Notes: generated by a model not told the origin, from the letters alone. Positions 138 through 58,662 are shown, counted from the stretch's first letter. The stretch is DNA of 64,000 nucleotides from Hydrolagus affinis (GCA_012026655.1 JAAILG010000268.1:1-64000); one strand, 5' to 3'. Numbers and translations are program-made.

Positions 138-549
138 TGACCAACAATAAATTGGAGCAGGGGTTCCTCAAGTAGATTGCTTGCTGGGACAACTGGCCAC
201 AGATTAAGATTGTGCTCTTACATTCCACCGCACCTATCAGGGTCTATCTAACATTTCCCTGCGCCGATCTGAAATTGCTCCTGATGATTCCAGGCTGGAA
301 ACGCTCATTTCAAATCATTTTCATAACATCGGCTGGTGGTTTGATACTGAAAGTTTGTAATATTGTTTGTGTTGGTGCCTTGCCACGTAACAATAATATT
401 AATAAAAATAATAATGATTCTTGTAGCAGACCTAGTGCCGTTCAAAGTCAGGAGGATGTGTCAAATCACTTCATTCATTTATTGTACCCATGTAGTGACT
501 GTGTACCCTTGTGCTCGAAGGGCAATTTTTTTTACCCATTTTACATACG

Positions 550-648
550 CGAGAGCGAGAGAGAGAAAACGAGAGAGAGAGAGCGAGAGAGAGAAAACGA
601 GAGAGGGAGAGCGAGAGAGAGAGAGCGAGAGAGGGAGCGAGAGAGAGA
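550..648. repeat. Interrupted (GA)n microsatellite
   Basis: GAGA runs with GAGC and GAAAAC interruptions. It is the source of the RE-repeat ORFs at 212-756. Confidence 0.95.
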
Positions 649-2430
649 TGTGTTGGATTAGGTGACAGGGCGTGCAGTGTTGCCAATTACAATGTATTTT
701 TTTTCGCTTTCACTGTACAGCACCAGGAGATTCATTACCAGTCACATATTCTATAAAGATGCGCGTATAGCAATAACTAGCAACAGAGCTGAGAACAATC
801 AACATTTATTTTTCCACAAGGTTTCATAGCATGTTGACAATGAACTGTTTTACATTTTACCCGTACTAGATTTATTTTTATTTATTAACAAAAAATGTCA
901 AGCTCTTTGTCCCAGTAAATGGTTCCTTGCTGTGCAAGGAAAGCACAGTTCTGTTGCTGCTCATTTTTTTTTATTTTAACTGTTTCGTGTGCTCGGTATC
1001 ATGGCCTTTTAATTGCAAATTAATAGCTATTATTAATACATTAAATGGTGTTAGGAGAACATTTGGAGCACTCTCAGCTTCCACCCGGGTTGACAGTTAA
1101 ATGCCGCAGCAATTTCAGCAATTCATTTATTTAATAGTGACCTATGCAAATGTGGATGCATGTCATTTGAAAAACTGACTGCCATAATTAACTAAAAACT
1201 GCAGAATTGAATGATATGAGGTACAATTAGAAAAAAAAAGGAAGCCTGCTGATGCCGGCTAATCTTAATTTGGAATAATAAAAAGGAGTTCACTTTATTA
1301 CAGCCTGGGTTACATTTCTAATTTGTGGAATATAAAATCGAACCGGCTGCTGTATTTCATTTAATAAACATTTACATTATTGTGCAAGGCGACTGAGGCT
1401 ATTATATTTTCCTATTTGTTCTTCGTGCCATTCTGTGCGTGTGTGGCTCGGCAATGTCCCCAGTAATTATAGATTTCCTTCACTCCTTTCAATAATTATG
1501 CTGCTCTGTTGAGTGTTTCCTCACATTAATATCCTACTCCTACATTGTCCACATTGTCTACAAAAAAAACGCTCATGAACAGGTTCAAATAAAACTCGTG
1601 CTGACAGCATTTGATGGAGGGTTTCTGAATCTGTTTTTTAAAAAATCTTAATTTTGCATTATTTTGGTCCAGATGCTTAAATATATTTTAACAATTATGG
1701 AGATTATTCCACACACACTGCTATTACCAGGCACTGTTTAAAATACCGAAACTGTCAGATGACATAATCCCTTCTCACCGGAGGATTTAATTTATTCTCC
1801 TTTTATATATAATATATGCATTGTAGGATTCTAATATACAGTGACAACCTAATCATATGTTTGCTACTTTATCTGTTTTTAATATACAAGGGAAGATAGC
1901 CGTGATTTAGCTTTAAACTTTTATACACTATATTGCAGAACATTTTTCTTGCTGATTGATTGCTTTTATTAACATTGATTTTATTTGCGCTATTAATTTC
2001 CCTTTTTAGCATATGTATAAATGGGCACCTTTGGTGTAGCTGCGCTTGCTACATTGTGAGTCGTCAGCACACCTGCCCAAATAAGATGCTTAACAGCACT
2101 GAAGAAAGAAAATGACATTTTATTTTACCCTTAGCATGAAGCCAGGGGCAAAGTTTGATCTGAAAACTTGCAAATTAACCAAAACTGTCACTCAGGAGTT
2201 ATGGGCTTCAATGCTGCAAAATACATTCTTTGAAGTCCTCATTTCAGCAAAATTATTAAAAACTTTATATCTAATTAGAATTATTACTGCATTCACATTT
2301 TTCAAAACCTCTATATCCTCAGGGCCAATTGGGATGAGTGAATACACACCCTCCTCTCTTCAGCACTCTGAACTGTTCCTACAGCAATATCAGATCATTA
2401 CCATCTCCCCAGCTGAGAAGGAGCAGCCAT

Positions 2431-3197: not shown

Positions 3198-3786
3198 TCA
3201 AGAATGACAACCAATGATGATAAACTCATCAACATCCAGGAATTGCATGCAATACACAAGTATCCCCTTCCCCCCACAAACACACACACTTGCTGGAAAA
3301 CCTCTGCCTTGAATACAATGCTGAAGCTATGTGCATGGGTGTCACCAGCTATCTAGTTTCTCACCCACCCAAGTAACCATCCTTCATGTGTGTGCCCGGA
3401 CAGCAGCAATGATAGAGTCAGGAGACTCTTTAACCCTAGGGGGTTTTGCAGGTGAACTCTCACCTGACCTCACTTGGCATACACGCACAGTTTCCTGTAG
3501 GAGGCAGATAACACTGATCAGTGGTGGGAAATCTTGGCTGACTTTCTCCTGACCTCAGTCCACGGCCACCGAGCCCCCACTTTCTTCCCATTACCTCTCT
3601 CCCTCTGACTAGTTGAGACTAACCAGCTCGGAAGAAATATTTTTTTCCTAGGCGGTGCAGCACAGTACCACAATGCATGATGGAGTGGTTACATAAATAA
3701 ATATCATTGGTCTTTTGTTAAGTGCTTCTAAATGTATCAGAAATCTTTTTGGGACAAAATAATAATAATTCTTACATTTGAGATAG
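3198..3786 (+). repeat. Left arm of a ~590-bp inverted duplication
   Basis: Matches the reverse complement of 5831-6423 along its length. ORFs 3331-3552(+) and 5964-6287(-) give near-identical peptides (MHGCH..SSFSPTQVTILHVCARTAAMIESGD..). Confidence 0.95.
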
Positions 3787-5830: not shown

Positions 5831-6423
5831 CTTTCTCAAATGTAAGAATTATTATTATTTTGTCCAGCAAAGATTTCTGTTATATATAGAAGCATATAAC
5901 AAAAAACCAATGATATTTAATTATGTGATTACTCCATCGTGCATTGCAGGGCTGCTGTACGGTCTAGGAGGAAAGCAAACTTTTGTTCTGTGCTGGTTGG
6001 TCGCAACTAGTCAGAGGGAGAGAGGTAATGGGAAGAAAGTGGGGATTAGTGGCCGCAGACTGTGGACAGGAGAAAGTCAGCCAAGATTTCCCACCACTGA
6101 TCAGTGTTGTCTGTCTCCTACAAGAAACTGTTTGTGTATGCCAAGTGAGGTCAGGTGAGAGTTCATCTGCAAAGCCCCCTAGGGTTAAACAGTCTCCTGA
6201 CTCTATCATTGCTGCTGTCCGGGCACACACATGAAGGATGGTTACTTGGGTGGGTGAGAAACTAGATGGCCGGTGACACCCATGCACATAGTTTCAGTAT
6301 TGTATTCAAGACAGAGTTTTTCTAGCAAGTGTGTGTGTTTGTGAGGAGGGGATATTTGTGTATTGCATGCTGTATTGTATTGCAGGATGTTGTGTTGAGT
6401 TTATCATTGGTTGTCATTCTTGA
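5831..6423 (-). repeat. Right arm of the inverted duplication
   Basis: Reverse complement of 3198-3786 with scattered substitutions and small indels. Confidence 0.95.
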
Positions 6424-8854: not shown

Positions 8855-9400
8855 CAATAATACAAAGAATCCTTGCATTTGATAAAGCACTCTATCACAC
8901 TATCAAGAAGTCTCAAACTCTTCACAGGAATGACTATAAAATGAAGTGACTATGTATTTGTGGGACTACTGCTGTGCACAACTGGCTGCCATGTTTCGCC
9001 CACAAAATATACAGTCAATTCACTTTATTCAATATTCTGTATATTTGGGACATCTCAAAGACATGATAAGGCGCTATATTAAATGCAAGGATTTTTATTA
9101 TTATTTTGTAGGTGAATTTGGTAGCTAATTTGCACACTGCAATGCCCCCCCAAAAATATTATCTGTGGGGGATTATTGGCTAGGACACCGGGAGAAACTC
9201 CCTTTTTGAATTGCGCCACAGGATGGTTAACATACATGCGAACAGGCAGATGGTACCCGAGTTAATGCCTCACCGAGAAATACAACACCTCCAGCAACGC
9301 ATCGCTCCCCAGCACCATGCTGGAGTGTCAGTCTAGACAGTGATCTCCAAGTCTTTTGATTGCTCTTAATGATGTCAGGTACTCTCACAGGAACACACTG
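8855..9400 (-). mobile_element. Deu-domain SINE (minus strand) interrupted by a plus-strand SINE 3' fragment (about 8961-9105)
   Basis: Minus-strand tail at 8855-8960 and Deu-like body at 9110-9400 (ggacaccgggagaaactccc...ggagtgtcagtctagac), separated by a plus-strand SINE body and tail. Confidence 0.7.
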
Positions 9401-23725: not shown

Positions 23726-25766
23726 TCCCACTTTTCTGCTGGGAAATTAGCAAGTGAAAATTAGTCCAAAAATTGTGACCCAGGGAGGATGTGTGATATA
23801 GGATAACAGCAAGGTGACGGGGAAACAGAGACAGCGAAGGTTTTTTAAAAAAAAATAGTGAACCTGTAGCAAAAGGGCTTCATATCCTTTTCCCACACCT
23901 TGCCTGAGACATCAAAGAGCCAATTAACTCCCTCACAAATTGGGTGGCGTGCTTACACTGGGAAGCTGTTGAGGGCAGCAAAACCACACTTTCGAGCCGT
24001 TTGATTCTGCCATCTACAAGCCTGTTTGAACTGTAGTTCTTGAATGTGTGTCAATCCTTGGACTTTCAATCTGTTAAAGGATTTTAATTAGGCCTTGACT
24101 CCACATCACTGTGAGTGTCTTTGTAGCTTGTGAATGGTACAAGGGTTCTGAATCCAGTCAAAACAGTCCTAAGCAGCACCGTGAAAAATACTCTTTCATT
24201 TGATGTGTGCCACTTCAGTACATTCAGCCTTTTCTTTGTCCCATTCTTTTGTAGCTTTTGAAATTATTAAAATGTTAACACGTATGCTGTCCCTTTGATA
24301 TTTCAGACAAAAGGGTAGGAAATGCAGGGTGCGGAGATATTCAAACGTGAAGATGGGAAATTCAAATCTGTCTTTATTTCATGCTTCACCAAGGATTTCT
24401 ATTTGTGCTCAGTATTCAAAATACTGCCTTTTGCAACGCATTACAATTAAGTGTATGTTTGCATATCCAGTTATATATATATATATAAAGGAACTATTTC
24501 TGACAGTCGGGGAAAAAAAGGGACGTTTTGCACTATTTTATAGCTACGTTTGACAGGATGTTCTGTGGTCCCGCATTTGGTTCATCCAACTGCCAAGAGA
24601 AATTAATACCCCTAGTGACTGTATTTTAATTAAGCAATTTCATGCAAATTACAAATTTATGATTGCCAAATAATATAGTGCAAAGAAGTCGTAGCAGGGC
24701 TGATCTGATATGCATGGCAAAGGCAGGCTTTCCATTCTGAAGCGACGGCCACAGAAAGAAAAATGAACTCAGATGATCATTTCCAATTTGCGACACACAC
24801 AAAAAAGCCGCAGACGTAGTCAATCCCATGAATTTTTTTTGAGAGGATGGGGGGGCTTAAAAATGATTCAGCTGACTATTTTTCCCTTTTACATTACAGG
24901 TCCTGGGAGCTGATTCCTCCCTCCCCTGTGACTCCCCTCTCCCTCTATCACTTCCCTCCCCATTCTCCTCCCACCCAACTTTAAATTTGTAGGTTTTTGT
25001 TCTTTCTTTTTAACCTGATAATTAAGAGTCTGTAAAATCCGAATTAATAAAAGATGAAATGGTTGGAAAGGCGCCCTTTGCATGCTGCAGACGGGAGCAG
25101 TTTGCTTTTGTTTCTTTGGTGGTGGGAAGACGTCGCTTGATTTTGCCAAACTGGTCATTTCTTTCAGACAACAGGGCAGGACAGGTCACCAGCGGTAAAA
25201 ACAAATGCCACAGCCCACCATCAGATAGTCAACCTCATAACATTTACCTTTGTGAGCAGTTCACTGAAGCCCATTGCAGAACCGGGGCAAACATGAGAAA
25301 TGTTTGATTTCATTTTTTCCTTACTTCAGTGTATTTTGAAACAGAGAATTTTGTTCTCTGTTTCAGAGAATTTCAGTAAATTCCAAGCTTTTTGTAACAT
25401 TGATCATAGCCCGAGAGCAGATTTATTCTTAACACAGAAAATTCATCTAGGAGTTAAAGGCAGATTAAGGGGTGAGTCCGAGTCCCGAAGACTCCTCTAT
25501 ATTTCTTTATTCAGTTTTGAACAAAGGATTAAAATGATCTCTCATATTCACTGACATGGCATAATGTTGCTTCCTAAGCTGCCGTACATCTGAGAGCTGA
25601 TCACTATGTTGCTCTGAGCAGGGCACCCTGTGGGGTTGTGCATCTAATGTCTGATTTGCCAAAGCACATCTGACAGGAGTCCAAATCTGAAACAACTTGT
25701 GAAACAAAAACAGAAATCACTGGGAACACTCAGCAGGTCAGGCAGCATCTATGGAGAAAGCAAAGT

Positions 25767-25805
25767 GAGTCAGCATTTCGGGTCCACGACCCTTCGTCAG
25801 AACTC
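25767..25805 (-). ncRNA. Minimal type-I hammerhead ribozyme motif (degenerate cleavage site)
   Basis: Minus strand reads GAGUU-CUGACGA-A-GGGUC-GUG-GACCC-GAAA-UGCU-GACUC. Stems I and II are intact; helix III and the cleavage triplet are mutated. Confidence 0.7.
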
Positions 25806-25823
25806 AGAGTTCTGACCAAGTTC

Positions 25824-25862
25824 AATTTCTGATGAAGGGTTGTAGACCCGAAACGTTGACTC
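25824..25862 (+). ncRNA. Minimal type-I hammerhead ribozyme motif (intact core)
   Basis: AAUUU-CUGAUGA-A-GGGU-UGUAG-ACCC-GAAA-C-GUU-GACUC. It has the CUGAnGA and GAAA boxes, stem II, a palindromic AACGUU helix III and a GUU triplet; stem I is weakened. Confidence 0.78.
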
Positions 25863-27524
25863 ACTTTCCTTTCTCCATAGATGCTGCTTGAGCTGCTGAG
25901 TGTTCCCAGCAATTTCTGTTTTGGTTTCAGATTTCCAGCATCTGCAATATTTTGTGTTTCTTTTTCTGGAACAACTTCTACCTTCTACCTAAAGAAAAAC
26001 CTCACGCTGCTCACTAGTTTCTTATACAGTATCAGTGTTCTTACATCTTCTGTCCAAATTCCAGAAGTGCAACAGTGCAAATGCAAACCTGCTTTTTTAA
26101 AAGACAATCTTTATATATAAGCATGCTTTCGGGTTGCCTGGCAACCCTGACATTAGCAAGATGAGATTGGTCATCTTCATCGGCACACTAGTATCAATAA
26201 GCAGCGCTTCCTGTAATGTATATATAATGTGTGTCTTAAAAAAGACATGAAATTCCACTGAGTCTGAGACTGTAACATCGATTTGTCGTTTTAATCTTCT
26301 TTGATCCTGGAGGCCAGTTATTCTTAAGGCCTTGGGAAAATGGTTTCTTCAGAATTTTCCACAATTTTGCACAATCTTAAATTTTAAGGCAAAATAGACA
26401 AAGTGGATTTCCCGTCTTAGATTCATTTCTGTGCTTGGGCAAGTGAACTGGAAAAATAATGGGCTAGAGAATTTCCTTTCACCTCTGAGCTTCGAATCTT
26501 TTTTGGGGGGACTGAAAGAACAAACATTTTCTCAGTTTCTGGTGGTTTTGAGAATGGAAGAATAAATGGGAAAAGGTCACTCACCCATCAAGCCCCATCC
26601 TCTCATCCTGCACTTAACTCATAATACTCCTTTGCTCTATCTACTCCTTGACAACGAGGAAACATCAGAATTACCAGAACCAACCCACAACTTACAGCTC
26701 AAAACTGTCCAGATTTTGGTATCATAATAATCATCGCCTTTCATATCAGGAGCACGTGTCAAAGTACTTCACAGGAAATACTTTTATATATATAAAATGT
26801 TACAGTTTACATTATTATAGGTGATATTCATTATATCCGGTAAATATCCTGTTAAAAGCAGACAATACTGAAGCTATCACTGCCAAGCAACTGGAGGGAG
26901 GAGAAAGTTCATCCCCATCCTCAGAGTGATAGCCATTGACTGCTTTTGATCAAATTCTTGGGTTAATCTGATAATTATCACTGGTGTTATATATGTGTAG
27001 CATTGTACCTGACACGCCATTCATAATCCTATATCCACTTTACCCCTATCTTACCCCCCACACTAACACCACCCTATTCCCTCCCTACTTGCGATACTGT
27101 CATTTCACTATCTTATTCCATTCATCATATCAGTATATACCCAAATTGAGCAGATATAAGTGCAATTTAGCACTTAGAATTCAGCAACCTCTCAAAAATG
27201 GATGTTGTTTCAAATAACGAATATGTGCCCAGCTATTAACAAATACAATTTCTCAGGTTCTTCTACAGAGGATCAGTATTCTGTTTACGGTCTGCCGCTG
27301 TAATCATCCAGCATGTCAGCTTCAAACCACATCAAATTCTAAATATCTACAATAATCCATATGCACACAATAATAATGTTAAACTCTCTGTGGAATAAAC
27401 TACCAAGACATGGAGAGATCGACCGGAGCTTATTTGACCCTGGTTCTTCTTTGTGATTTGACCAATTTTTTCCTCCCTTATGCTTGAGATCAAAGCTAAT
27501 GCTATAATAGCATCAAGAGGTTGA

Positions 27525-36675: not shown

Positions 36676-37834
36676 CCTTACGTGCGACACATATATTCCT
36701 GCATCACTTTCCTGACTCTAGCTTACAAGACAATGCTCGAACTACTTGTGGTTGTTCTTTAGCATCTAGGAGGTAATGCACTAACTCTGTACAGAGAAAA
36801 AGAGTACTGCATCAAGGGAGCACTAAAATCTTTAATTCTTTGAAAGTTTACCAAGAACAGTTTTGCTCCAGACCTAGCATTCCATGCATCACACATCAAT
36901 CCACCCGTTCACTTATTGTGTCCAGACAGATACTTCAAACCACTGATCCACCAACATATACACACATCCACACACCAAAAATGCTAAGTATCTGATGAGG
37001 CAAAAGTGTTTTGAAAATGATTCCAGATGTTTTAATTTTAAACTCAGTATTTTTACAATATGTCAGTCAGTTTAATTTGTCATTCCTTTTAGGGAATCTG
37101 ACACATTTGAAGAAACTCACCAATCTCTTTGATCTAGGCAGGTCCAAGGTGATTTCATTTTCTGAAAACAGTTCTATTTTACTACTAGTAATTATGTTGG
37201 ATTTGATTTAATAAATGCGTAATCTTGCCTTTGTAGTACAATAAGCCTTTTGTCCTTCAATATGCTTTTGGTTACTTGTCAGTGCAATAATGTAAAATCT
37301 GCACTGAAAGGCAAGACTCAGTACAGAGCTGTATTATGAACTACAGAAATTTAAAATGTATTTCAACCATTCAAATTTACATCACATATTGTTTCAGTAG
37401 TGGGTTGCTTTTAACACGGTGAAATGTTAATAGAACAATCATTGTGAAATAAAATGAAAGGTTGAGAGGAAAAAAACATATTTAAGTGCGCATTGCAATT
37501 TTACAAATATCTGTGTTTTAAAATGCAACAGACAAATTGTAACTAATGGTAAAGCATGATATCACACAGTCAACATGTCTCAAAGTGCTTCACAGGAATG
37601 ATTGTAAAGTGCTCCAAGACACTATCTAGATGAAAGGTGATATATAAATGCAAGCTGTGGTTGCAAAGTGTATTTTTATATATTTACTGCATGTTTGGTC
37701 AAATGCGGCAGCTAATTTGCACACACCAATATATTACTAGAACGCGTTGTTGCCAACGAATGCGCACACCGCTCCCTCCATTCCCTTTTCGAACCCATCC
37801 AGTTCAGTTTCTGCCCTGCCCACAATACAGAGAC

Positions 37835-39505
37835 TGCACTTGTGAAAGTCACAAACGTTACCCTCTCTATCTGTGACCAGGGCTCACTCTGCCTCCTTGT
37901 CCTCCTGGGCCTTTCTGCCGCTTTCGACACAGTCGATCACACCATCCTCCTCTATCGCCTGTCCTCCGTCATCCACCTCAGTGGGACCCCACTCGCCTGG
38001 TTTGAGTTCCTACCTCACAAACCACCAAAAATGTATCTCCACAAATGGTTTTTCCTCCCACTTTCTCCCAGTTACCTGCGGGGTACTCCAAGGATCCATC
38101 CTTGGCCCCCTTCTCTTCCTTATCTACATGCTCCCTCTTGGGGATGTCATCCGTAAACATGGGGTACACTTCCACATGTATGTGGATGACATCCAATTCC
38201 ATTTTTCCACCTCACTTTGCAATCCCCCAGTCCCCTGATGTTCTGTCAGCCTGCCTGTCAGACATCAAGAGTTGGATGAGTGCGAATTTCCTTCAGCTCA
38301 ATGTTGACAAGACGGAAGCTATACTCTTTGGCTCTCATTGACGTCTTCAATCCCATGACTCTTACCTCCTCCACCTACCCGACCTTCCCCTAAAACTCTC
38401 CGAACCCGTAAGCAACTTAGGAGTCAGGTTCAACCCCCAATTATCCTTCCTCCCCCACATCTGGTCCCTCACCAGCATCGCTTTCTTCCATCTCCGACGC
38501 ATCGCCCGTCTTTGCCAATATCTCACCCCAAAAGCCGCTGAAACCCCCCCTCCTGCCACCACCACCACCTCTCCGAACTGCTGTCCCACTATGAACCTCC
38601 CTGGCCCCTCCATTCAGTGGGCTCCGGCCGGCTCCGTGTTCTACCATCAGCGGACGGGTTTTCAGGCTCTCTGCTCTGACACTGTGAAACTCTATCCCAC
38701 AGTCACTTTGCCTCGCTCTCTCCCCCTCCTCTTCGACTGTGCCTTCTGCTGCCCTCCCAACTCTCTCCCTCCCCTCGTAACTCTCTCCCGCCTCTCCCCC
38801 CTGCCCTACCCCTCTCCCTTGCTCGGGTCCCGTCCTGACTGTTTAGTGCCTTGGGACAACCTCCCAAGGTGAAAGGCGCTCTATAAATGTAATTTTGTTG
38901 TTGTTGTTGAAACATTTGTCATCGTTCGGCTGGACTATTCAAATACCCTCCTCGCCAGGCCCCCTCCCCACACCCCTCCCCGCCACCGTTCACAAAATCC
39001 AGGTTATCCAAAATTCTGCCGCCTGCATTCTCACTCGTATCAAACTTCACTCCCCAATTACCCCAGTCTTTGCCAGACTTCACTGGCTCCCTGTCTCGGA
39101 GCAGATCGATTTCAACATGCTCACTCTTGTTTTCAAATCCTTCCACTCCTCTGCAACCCCCTACCTCTCTGACCCCCTCTCTCCTCACAATAGCACCCCA
39201 TTGCCTTCGCTCTACTGGGTCTGGCCTCCTCCTTGTCCCCCGAATCCTCTGTTCCACATTGGCGGCCATGCCTTCAGCCACCATGCCCCGAGGCTCTGGA
39301 ACTCCAATCCTCACTCCCTTCACCTTGCCCCCACTTTTCCCATTTTTAGGTCATGGCTAAAGACCTGGCTAAAGATCTTTTTGACCACACTTTTGGTCAC
39401 CTTTCACCCCTTCCTCCTGGCTCTGCCCCAGGATCTGTTATTATGAAGCGCTTTGAGGCGCCATCCGGTATGGAGGGCACTATATAAATCCAAGTTGTTG
39501 TTGTT
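37835..39505 (+). mobile_element. L2 LINE RT domain to 3' tail, frameshifted and interrupted at 38545-38907
   Basis: LLVLLGLSAAFDTVDHTILL, GVLQGSILGPLLFLIYM, FHMYVDD, LSDIKSWMSANFLQLNVDKTE and LHWLPVSEQIDF; (GTT)n tail. Confidence 0.95.
38545..38907 (+). mobile_element. Younger L2 3' fragment nested in the older L2
   Basis: Has its own 3' UTR and (GTT)n tail, and is flanked by tgaaac (38539-38544 and 38908-38913). Confidence 0.8.
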
Positions 39506-58525: not shown

Positions 58526-58662
58526 GCATAACAAAAAATACTACAGATGCTGGGAATCTGAAACAAAATCAGAGTTTTTGGGGAAACTCAGCAGGTCAGG
58601 CAGCATCCATGGAGAAAGGAAAATGAGTCAATGTTTCGGGTCTACAACCCTTCGTCAGAACT
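58526..58662 (-). mobile_element. Solo Penelope-like terminal repeat carrying a hammerhead motif (58625-58662)
   Basis: Same sequence as the arms at 25683-25960. The minus strand reads AGUU-CUGACGA-A-GGGU-UGUAG-ACCC-GAAA-CAUU-GACU. Confidence 0.8.

Follow-up and report, generated by a model that had tools for sequence, protein, structure and literature searches.

What kind of element is a foldback of roughly 270 bp that carries a minimal hammerhead ribozyme motif in each of two head-to-head arms, and how does its mirror half arise? A locus of this type is found in a 64,000-nucleotide stretch of the Hydrolagus affinis genome (JAAILG010000268.1:1-64000, referred to here as the window), where a first-pass annotation made from the sequence alone had described it as an open reading frame-less, non-autonomous retroelement with a possibly new arrangement of ribozymes. 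On the evidence set out below, the 266-bp unit is very probably a single truncated insertion of a Neptune/Nematis-type Penelope-like element (PLE), with two hammerhead-bearing ends placed head to head within one 13-bp target-site duplication (TSD) and a mirror half that was likely built during insertion.

Structure of the foldback unit

Inverted-repeat analysis of the 64-kb window identified two arms of 103 nt each (25700-25802 and 25827-25929) that are 89% complementary, so that the foldback itself is well founded. The unit proper extends from 25699 to 25964 and is flanked by a single TSD (Table 1), which the first-pass annotation had missed in placing the start of the unit at 25683, outside its true limits. 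Element positions are numbered here from window position 25827 (position 1), the first T of TTCTGA, and the predicted ribozyme cut falls between element positions 31 and 32. The tail that characterises Penelope-type insertions is present on the direct arm only, and at the junction with the target there is no microhomology but instead a 1-nt insertion.

Table 1 Features of the foldback unit and of a related solo insertion in the window
Feature	Position	Strand	Remarks
TSD, left copy, 13 bp	25686..25698	+	12/13 match to 25965-25977
Single extra base, left junction	25699..25699	.	
Inverted pLTR-end copy without tail, subfamily A	25700..25804	-	Element positions -1 to 103
Minimal hammerhead remnant, minus copy	25767..25805	-	Helices I and II intact; predicted inactive
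14-bp snap-back hairpin within/around junction filler	25792-25820		
Junction filler, short local re-copies, unique to locus	25805..25826	.	
Minimal hammerhead, plus copy	25825..25861	+	Core and helix II intact, ACGU palindrome, GUU triplet
Direct pLTR-end copy including tail, subfamily A	25827..25964	+	Element positions 1 to about 138
Penelope-type tail, about 32-35 bp, direct arm only	25930..25964	+	
TSD, right copy	25965..25977	+	One mismatch relative to left copy
Solo insertion of same family, subfamily B2	58527..58662	-	Own short direct repeat

Splice-like sites are also apparent: a donor-like GTGAGT in the inverted arm (25765-25770) and, in the direct arm, a pyrimidine tract with a terminal CAG (25914-25930) at which the tail boundary lies. 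Together these make any head-to-head unit resemble an intron of ~166 nt in either direction. The window contains other inverted structures too: a short imperfect repeat at 26092-26244, 130 bases to the right of the unit, whose 26-nt arms (77%) are separated by 101 nt; two inverted copies of ~600 bases with 87% identity at 3198-3786 and 5831-6423; and a degenerate palindrome of ~250 bases at 8856-9105 that is built from common repeats.

Two damaged hammerheads

The window contains three instances of the motif CTGANGAAGGGT-N3-8-ACCCGAAA, whereas 100 shuffled versions gave none. Two of the occurrences, at 25776-25800 (minus strand) and 25829-25853 (plus strand), provide the CUGAnGA/GAAA core previously noted on both arms, whilst the third (58634-58658) lies in the solo copy. 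As first annotated, the plus copy has an intact core (CUGAUGA at 25829-25835, GAAA at 25850-25853) and a GUU triplet (25855-25857), with cleavage predicted 3' of 25857. Its helix I is broken, however, by a T at 25826 where the family has G, leaving two pairs and a mismatch. In hammerhead residue numbering, A14 and the cleavage-site U are core residues, and the helix III palindrome given earlier as AACGUU is thus reduced to ACGU. The minus copy retains helices I and II, each of 5 bp, but has the triplet GCU instead of GUU and a broken helix III palindrome, much as the annotation had it in describing perfect stems alongside a decayed triplet. Both ribozymes of the unit are damaged and so are likely to be dead.

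No Rfam hammerhead family matched at the locus or at five other loci with family copies; the Rfam models may miss this motif because it has no helix III loop. The sole Rfam match at the locus was a sub-threshold one to mir-4637. RNA folding of the whole unit gave a minimum free energy of -168.7 kcal/mol and a pairing probability of 0.0 for the sense helix II, and a very stable hairpin is predicted from either strand. A read-through RNA is predicted to form one long hairpin in which neither ribozyme folds, in line with the masking envisaged in the first-pass annotation.

The commonest base in each column of 213 copies yields the CUGAnGA and GAAA core together with an extra base after A9, a G-C closing pair, a palindromic 15.2/16.2, an NUH triplet and a helix I of 4-5 bp, that is, a minimal type I hammerhead, one feature of which is lost in each of the two copies here. 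The contrast drawn previously between a conserved stem II and a varying loop does not amount to covariation. In helix II the arms differ by one CpG C-to-T change (C-G to U-G), found in 25 of the 89 copies that have the class A base at site 53, and by one G-to-A change in the loop; the same two bases are typical of subfamily B2, where helix II is kept via the U-G pair. Stem changes within the family are solely one-sided (C-G to U-G), with no two-sided change seen, and the differences between the arms are mostly CpG decay. Outside the family, 15 metagenome records (L216-L230) have the same minimal hammerhead core with other loops and helix I strands in unrelated flanks; the helix I strands of some of them are complementary in other ways, whilst helix II was fixed by the search pattern.

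A Penelope-like family

The arm belongs to an abundant repeat family. A first look at the genome gave 2,476 arm candidates, and the core pattern has at least 2,198 exact matches in the same genome (control, 0). Unselected contigs totalling 750 kb contain 10 arms, which belong to eight insertions, two of them with an inverted partner; extrapolation from these 750 kb suggests a rough genome total of some 10,000 insertions. Three subfamilies can be defined by linked sites.

At four of the first 30 loci (L003, L011, L018 and L020), the sequence on the 5' side of the arm is a UTR and ORF end that they have in common. Longer, broken copies contain a reverse transcriptase (RT) YIDD motif, a C-x4-C-x2-C linker, a GIY-YIG-like domain, a DKG motif and an ORF start, the layout having been pieced together from overlapping broken copies with no intact full-length copy seen. 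A 243-aa piece of the ORF has 28 homologues among 466 candidates, led by whale shark and zebra shark sequences at 50-51% identity; PF00078, PF01541 or PF26215 occurs in many of them. A 904-aa RT and GIY-YIG protein matches the endonuclease (EN) piece at its C-terminus with 44% identity. Pfam searches with nine of the element's own ORF fragments gave no match for any of them at E<=0.01, and a further search gave just a sub-threshold GIY-YIG match (E 0.016). The arrangement of an EN+ PLE, with RT followed by a C-terminal GIY-YIG domain in one ORF, is present in the broken longer copies and not at the locus itself. The suspected Penelope link is confirmed, longer copies of the arm running on into an ORF for RT and GIY-YIG. 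Neptune and Nematis elements have been defined by a CX2-5CxxC linker between RT and EN, a CCHH motif in EN and a DKG motif (definitions as given in PMC8557442); the linker, CCHH and DKG are all present here and, judged by these sequence features, the element is of Neptune or Nematis type.

In all 30 loci selected for the junction, the ORF start comes straight after the tail, in a partial tandem that joins 3' end to ORF start. Because the tail runs directly into the ORF, the ~135-bp arm is both the 3' end of the element and its 5' leader, or pLTR. The earlier view of the unit as a distinct ORF-less element is not supported, its arm being the pLTR and 5' end of an autonomous family. The solo copy at 58527-58662 starts at position -1 and has a tail, its helix III palindrome being broken by CpG decay.

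Several further observations concern the family. Many short partial tandems (L262-L290) comprise a tail, the first 60-390 bases of the ORF and a jump to a new pLTR, often landing exactly at position -1; these look like the RT template jumps that build pLTRs. Two groups of independent insertions (L155, L166, L200 and L263; L019, L143, L148 and L168) occupy apparently the same two sites in other abundant repeats, suggesting preferred AT-rich targets. A predicted zebra shark protein (P0002) reads through the 3' UTR, and the residues at its C-terminus would be compatible with translation through a hammerhead sequence of similar type, a hint that this layout is shared by another shark. The family may already have a name in Repbase or Dfam. 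Elsewhere in the window, two broken RT fragments (PF00078) at 37716-38235 (+) are probably a LINE remnant.

Head-to-head pairs and the origin of the mirror half

Head-to-head junctions are widespread in the genome, with at least 124 exact matches to a tight pattern and none to a reversed-pattern control. Fifty-seven pairs were collected, with three loci counted twice, and 51 were analysed after removal of duplicates, pairs without a tail-bearing arm and very short arms. The centre is distinct in 50 of the 51 pairs, that of the present locus being unique to it, which argues that the mirror half is rebuilt at every insertion: the foldback is an insertion product, not a spreading unit. A TSD of 12-19 bp (lengths that include chance extension) surrounds the whole unit in 33/51 pairs compared to 27/2,550 mismatched-flank controls (1.1%), with no detectable TSD in the other 18. 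Long arms end at positions 127-140, whereas short arms end at 85-112 in 41/51 pairs, so that the tail is one-sided. Both arms belong to the same subfamily in 46 of the 48 pairs that could be classified (of the 57 found), as at the present locus, where both are of class A.

How, then, would such a unit be made? We propose that the element protein nicks both DNA strands about 13 bp apart. One nick would prime reverse transcription of the element RNA at about position 135 and the second at about position 103, the two start sites bounding the tail. Both cDNAs would traverse the uncleaved hammerhead and stop in common at about -1, where the RNA most likely has its 5' end, before being joined end to end with short re-copied filler, the finished unit decaying about neutrally thereafter. 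Such a scheme has a precedent in the Anolis carolinensis Poseidon element PAc, whose protein is reported to nick and extend both strands in vitro, with reverse transcription starting at two internal sites that bound the tail and on uncleaved RNA (Frangieh et al. 2024, PMC11167929).

The mirror arm might alternatively be made by self-priming, with the first cDNA folding back at its 3' end and copying itself before it is joined to the target; family and single insertion would be the same, and only the source of the second arm would differ. The lack of junction microhomology at the locus, the 14-bp snap-back hairpin at its centre and the concordance of the arms in subfamily all favour this route, and junction palindromes were interpreted in this way by Arkhipova (2013, PMC3846280). 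It is harder to reconcile with the arms themselves. In 16/51 pairs, the short arm extends beyond the long arm on the 5' side by 8 nt or more, the reverse being true of 7/51 (a comparison biased by the partial selection of pairs through queries that required an intact ribozyme, L171-L215), and a short arm that extends further 5' holds sequence absent from the long arm, so that it often cannot be a copy of it. Tail-less solo copies with a TSD of their own (4/9) indicate that position 103 is an independent start or end site, and extension on both strands has been reported in vitro (PMC11167929). Self-priming is accordingly the strongest of the alternatives but an unlikely one. In favour of the two-nick scheme, the TSD overlaps the inverted arm by at least 2 nt at 9/16 measurable junctions, though it does not do so at the 25699-25964 locus. 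The idea that tail-less solo copies are really pairs with a tiny tail arm held in just 1/9.

Spread of the foldback as a separate non-autonomous retroelement, its whole 270-bp unit being transcribed and copied with both ribozymes, would account for the fact that most copies are short, ORF-less and sharp-ended and for the frequency of inverted partners (2/8 insertions in the unselected contigs); a few very short centres also recur among the 50 junction loci listed. Centres and arm ends that differ in 50/51 pairs are not expected of a unit copied whole, however, and the same arm terminates ORF-bearing copies, the long ones among which likewise carry inverted 5' pieces. We regard this interpretation as very improbable, and favour the single PLE insertion, probably built from two priming sites.

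The 5' edge of copies and the proposed start of the transcript

If two cDNAs are copied from one RNA, where does that RNA begin? Among 57 arms not selected on the ribozyme (one deleted copy being counted twice), 21 start at positions -4 to 5, only one starts at 28-36, around the cleavage site, and six reach beyond -15. Hammerhead cleavage was therefore rejected as the source of the 5' ends. Since these ends gather at helix I and not at the cleavage site, the template is taken to be uncleaved RNA that likely starts at the edge. In a larger set of 93 edge-ending copies (92 with flank), partly selected on the ribozyme, the native base is found at position 0 in 70, at -1 in 51 and at -2 in 45, and is at background from -3 onward. 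Seven of 20 tandem loci join ORF-start sequence to the ribozyme edge, six of them at AG-TTCTG; five are joined further upstream, and in the other eight the search motif was not matched.

The first base of helix I, at position -1, is also the A of CCAGTTC, a sequence that conforms to the initiator consensus YYANWYY. We predict that the RNA likely starts at this position, that is, at the A of AGUUCUGA. An internal, TATA-less promoter has been described in the pLTR of the Drosophila virilis Penelope element (PMC2377424). The edge could instead mark a stop of the RT at helix I rather than the start of the RNA. The CAG immediately preceding the ribozyme is unlikely to act as a splice site, since the AG is retained in copies and no common upstream exon was seen. 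The full model, in which RNA starts at the initiator-like first base of helix I, the ribozyme stays uncut during copying and RT runs off the end from two tail-bounding sites, is put forward tentatively, at somewhat less than even confidence. Were it correct, one geometry would explain the thousands of ~135-bp stumps and the head-to-head pairs with one tail, as well as the jumps by which pieces of the ORF start become linked to a new pLTR at -1.

Decay of copies and possible host functions

Copies of the family appear to decay about neutrally. Across 57 unselected copies the core differs at 11/296 sites compared to 53/899 and 67/1,817 in the flanks (the latter figure biased low by the query) and 71/238 at CpG sites, and all ribozyme features are kept in just one of 18 unselected copies that span the ribozyme; no post-insertion selection on the core was found in this unselected set. 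A long-copy set (7/298 against 86/1,866) gives a weak difference confounded by base composition. At the locus itself, the arms are identical at 87 of 93 non-CpG sites, equal to the mean of other pairs (93.4%). With both ribozymes damaged and copies decaying in this way, a selected ribozyme or double-stranded RNA function at the locus finds no support.

The same figures bear on whether the locus is kept as a regulatory hairpin of the host, either as an ADAR or Dicer substrate or as a masked ribozyme switch. The stability of the predicted fold on both strands would suit such a role, but neither the arm identity of the locus nor the core-to-flank comparison across copies points to one, and a survey of the 143 window ORFs of 72 aa or more, which short exons would escape, yielded no host gene domain and nothing beyond the two RT fragments noted above. 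A host role is very improbable. At another locus (L062), an intact-looking 353-aa open frame with CCCH-like cysteine motifs lies at 139-1197 (+) and is probably a host gene.

An origin as a MITE, or as some other DNA transposon bounded by long terminal inverted repeats, is scarcely credible. The unit has an inverted-repeat shape of about 270 bp and a TSD, but its two arms are not equal and its 3' end is rich in T, and across the family the TSD ranges from 12 to 19 bp, the majority of copies consist of one arm, and an RT ORF is linked to the sequence. The fixed termini, fixed TSD length and shared internal sequence of such elements are all lacking.

Relationship to known elements

The suggestion that the arrangement might be undescribed does not survive comparison with the literature. 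Minimal hammerheads in PLE pLTRs, mostly scattered single motifs, were reported by Cervera and De la Peña (2014, PMC4209133), as were dual motifs on opposite strands about 100-700 bp apart with low, dimer-dependent cleavage. Head-to-head inverted pLTRs with tail and TSD are described by Arkhipova (2013, PMC3846280) and Craig (2021, PMC8557442), and the pattern is repeated as curation advice in PMC8969392. Our literature searches for a description from sharks found no paper on this family.

The closest structural parallel lies in the complex insertions of EN+ PLEs (PMC3846280, PMC8557442), which, as described there, have a head-to-head inverted and 5'-truncated copy, a tail of 30-40 bp at one end, one TSD round the whole unit and junction palindromes. 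The present family likewise has a tail at one end, an inverted 5'-truncated copy and a variable TSD round the insertion. It differs in that both halves consist only of the ~100-135-bp end with no ORF, and in its TSD of 12-19 bp rather than the 8-10 bp of the rotifer examples; stumps in the thousands are also unlike the complex insertions described in these papers.

The hammerheads share with the metazoan PLE motifs described in PMC4209133 a G10.1-C11.1 pair, a palindrome at 15.2/16.2 and an additional base separating A9 from helix II. In both, helix I is short and loop 3 is lacking, and the motifs occur mostly singly with some opposite-strand pairs. Here, however, helix II has 5 bp where the Schistosoma families have 7-8 bp, GUU serves as the triplet and paired motifs lie only about 20-30 nt apart. 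We found no shark named in that account, the supplements of which may list shark motifs.

PAc, from a different clade, shares with the present family a pLTR hammerhead just ahead of the ORF, a pair of insertion ends separated by the length of a tail, and an uncleaved RNA template. The PAc ORF begins within the hammerhead, with the sites of RT initiation inside that ORF (PMC11167929), whereas the conserved ORF start here lies some 30 nt beyond the tail. We found no description of a sharp 5' edge at helix I in that account of PAc. Animal non-LTR retrozymes (bioRxiv 10.64898/2026.07.22.740005) are also short, non-coding, derived from PLE pLTRs and equipped with a type I hammerhead, with many monomers, but are there characterised as head-to-tail tandems with at least two intact ribozymes, unlike the head-to-head unit and its two damaged ribozymes.

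Significance

The locus itself is likely to be ordinary repeat debris, a known kind of insertion with dead ribozymes. For annotation, the lesson is that such hairpins, which resemble MITEs or microRNA precursors, are best catalogued as PLE ends. Of wider interest is the family as a whole, a large natural sample of PLE integration products that agrees with the 2024 in vitro finding, as reported for PAc, that insertion needs no hammerhead cleavage (PMC11167929). The family also gives a testable prediction of where the transcript starts and, should the tentative model of the 5' edge hold, the genome would constitute an in vivo map of PLE transcript start and two-site twin priming.
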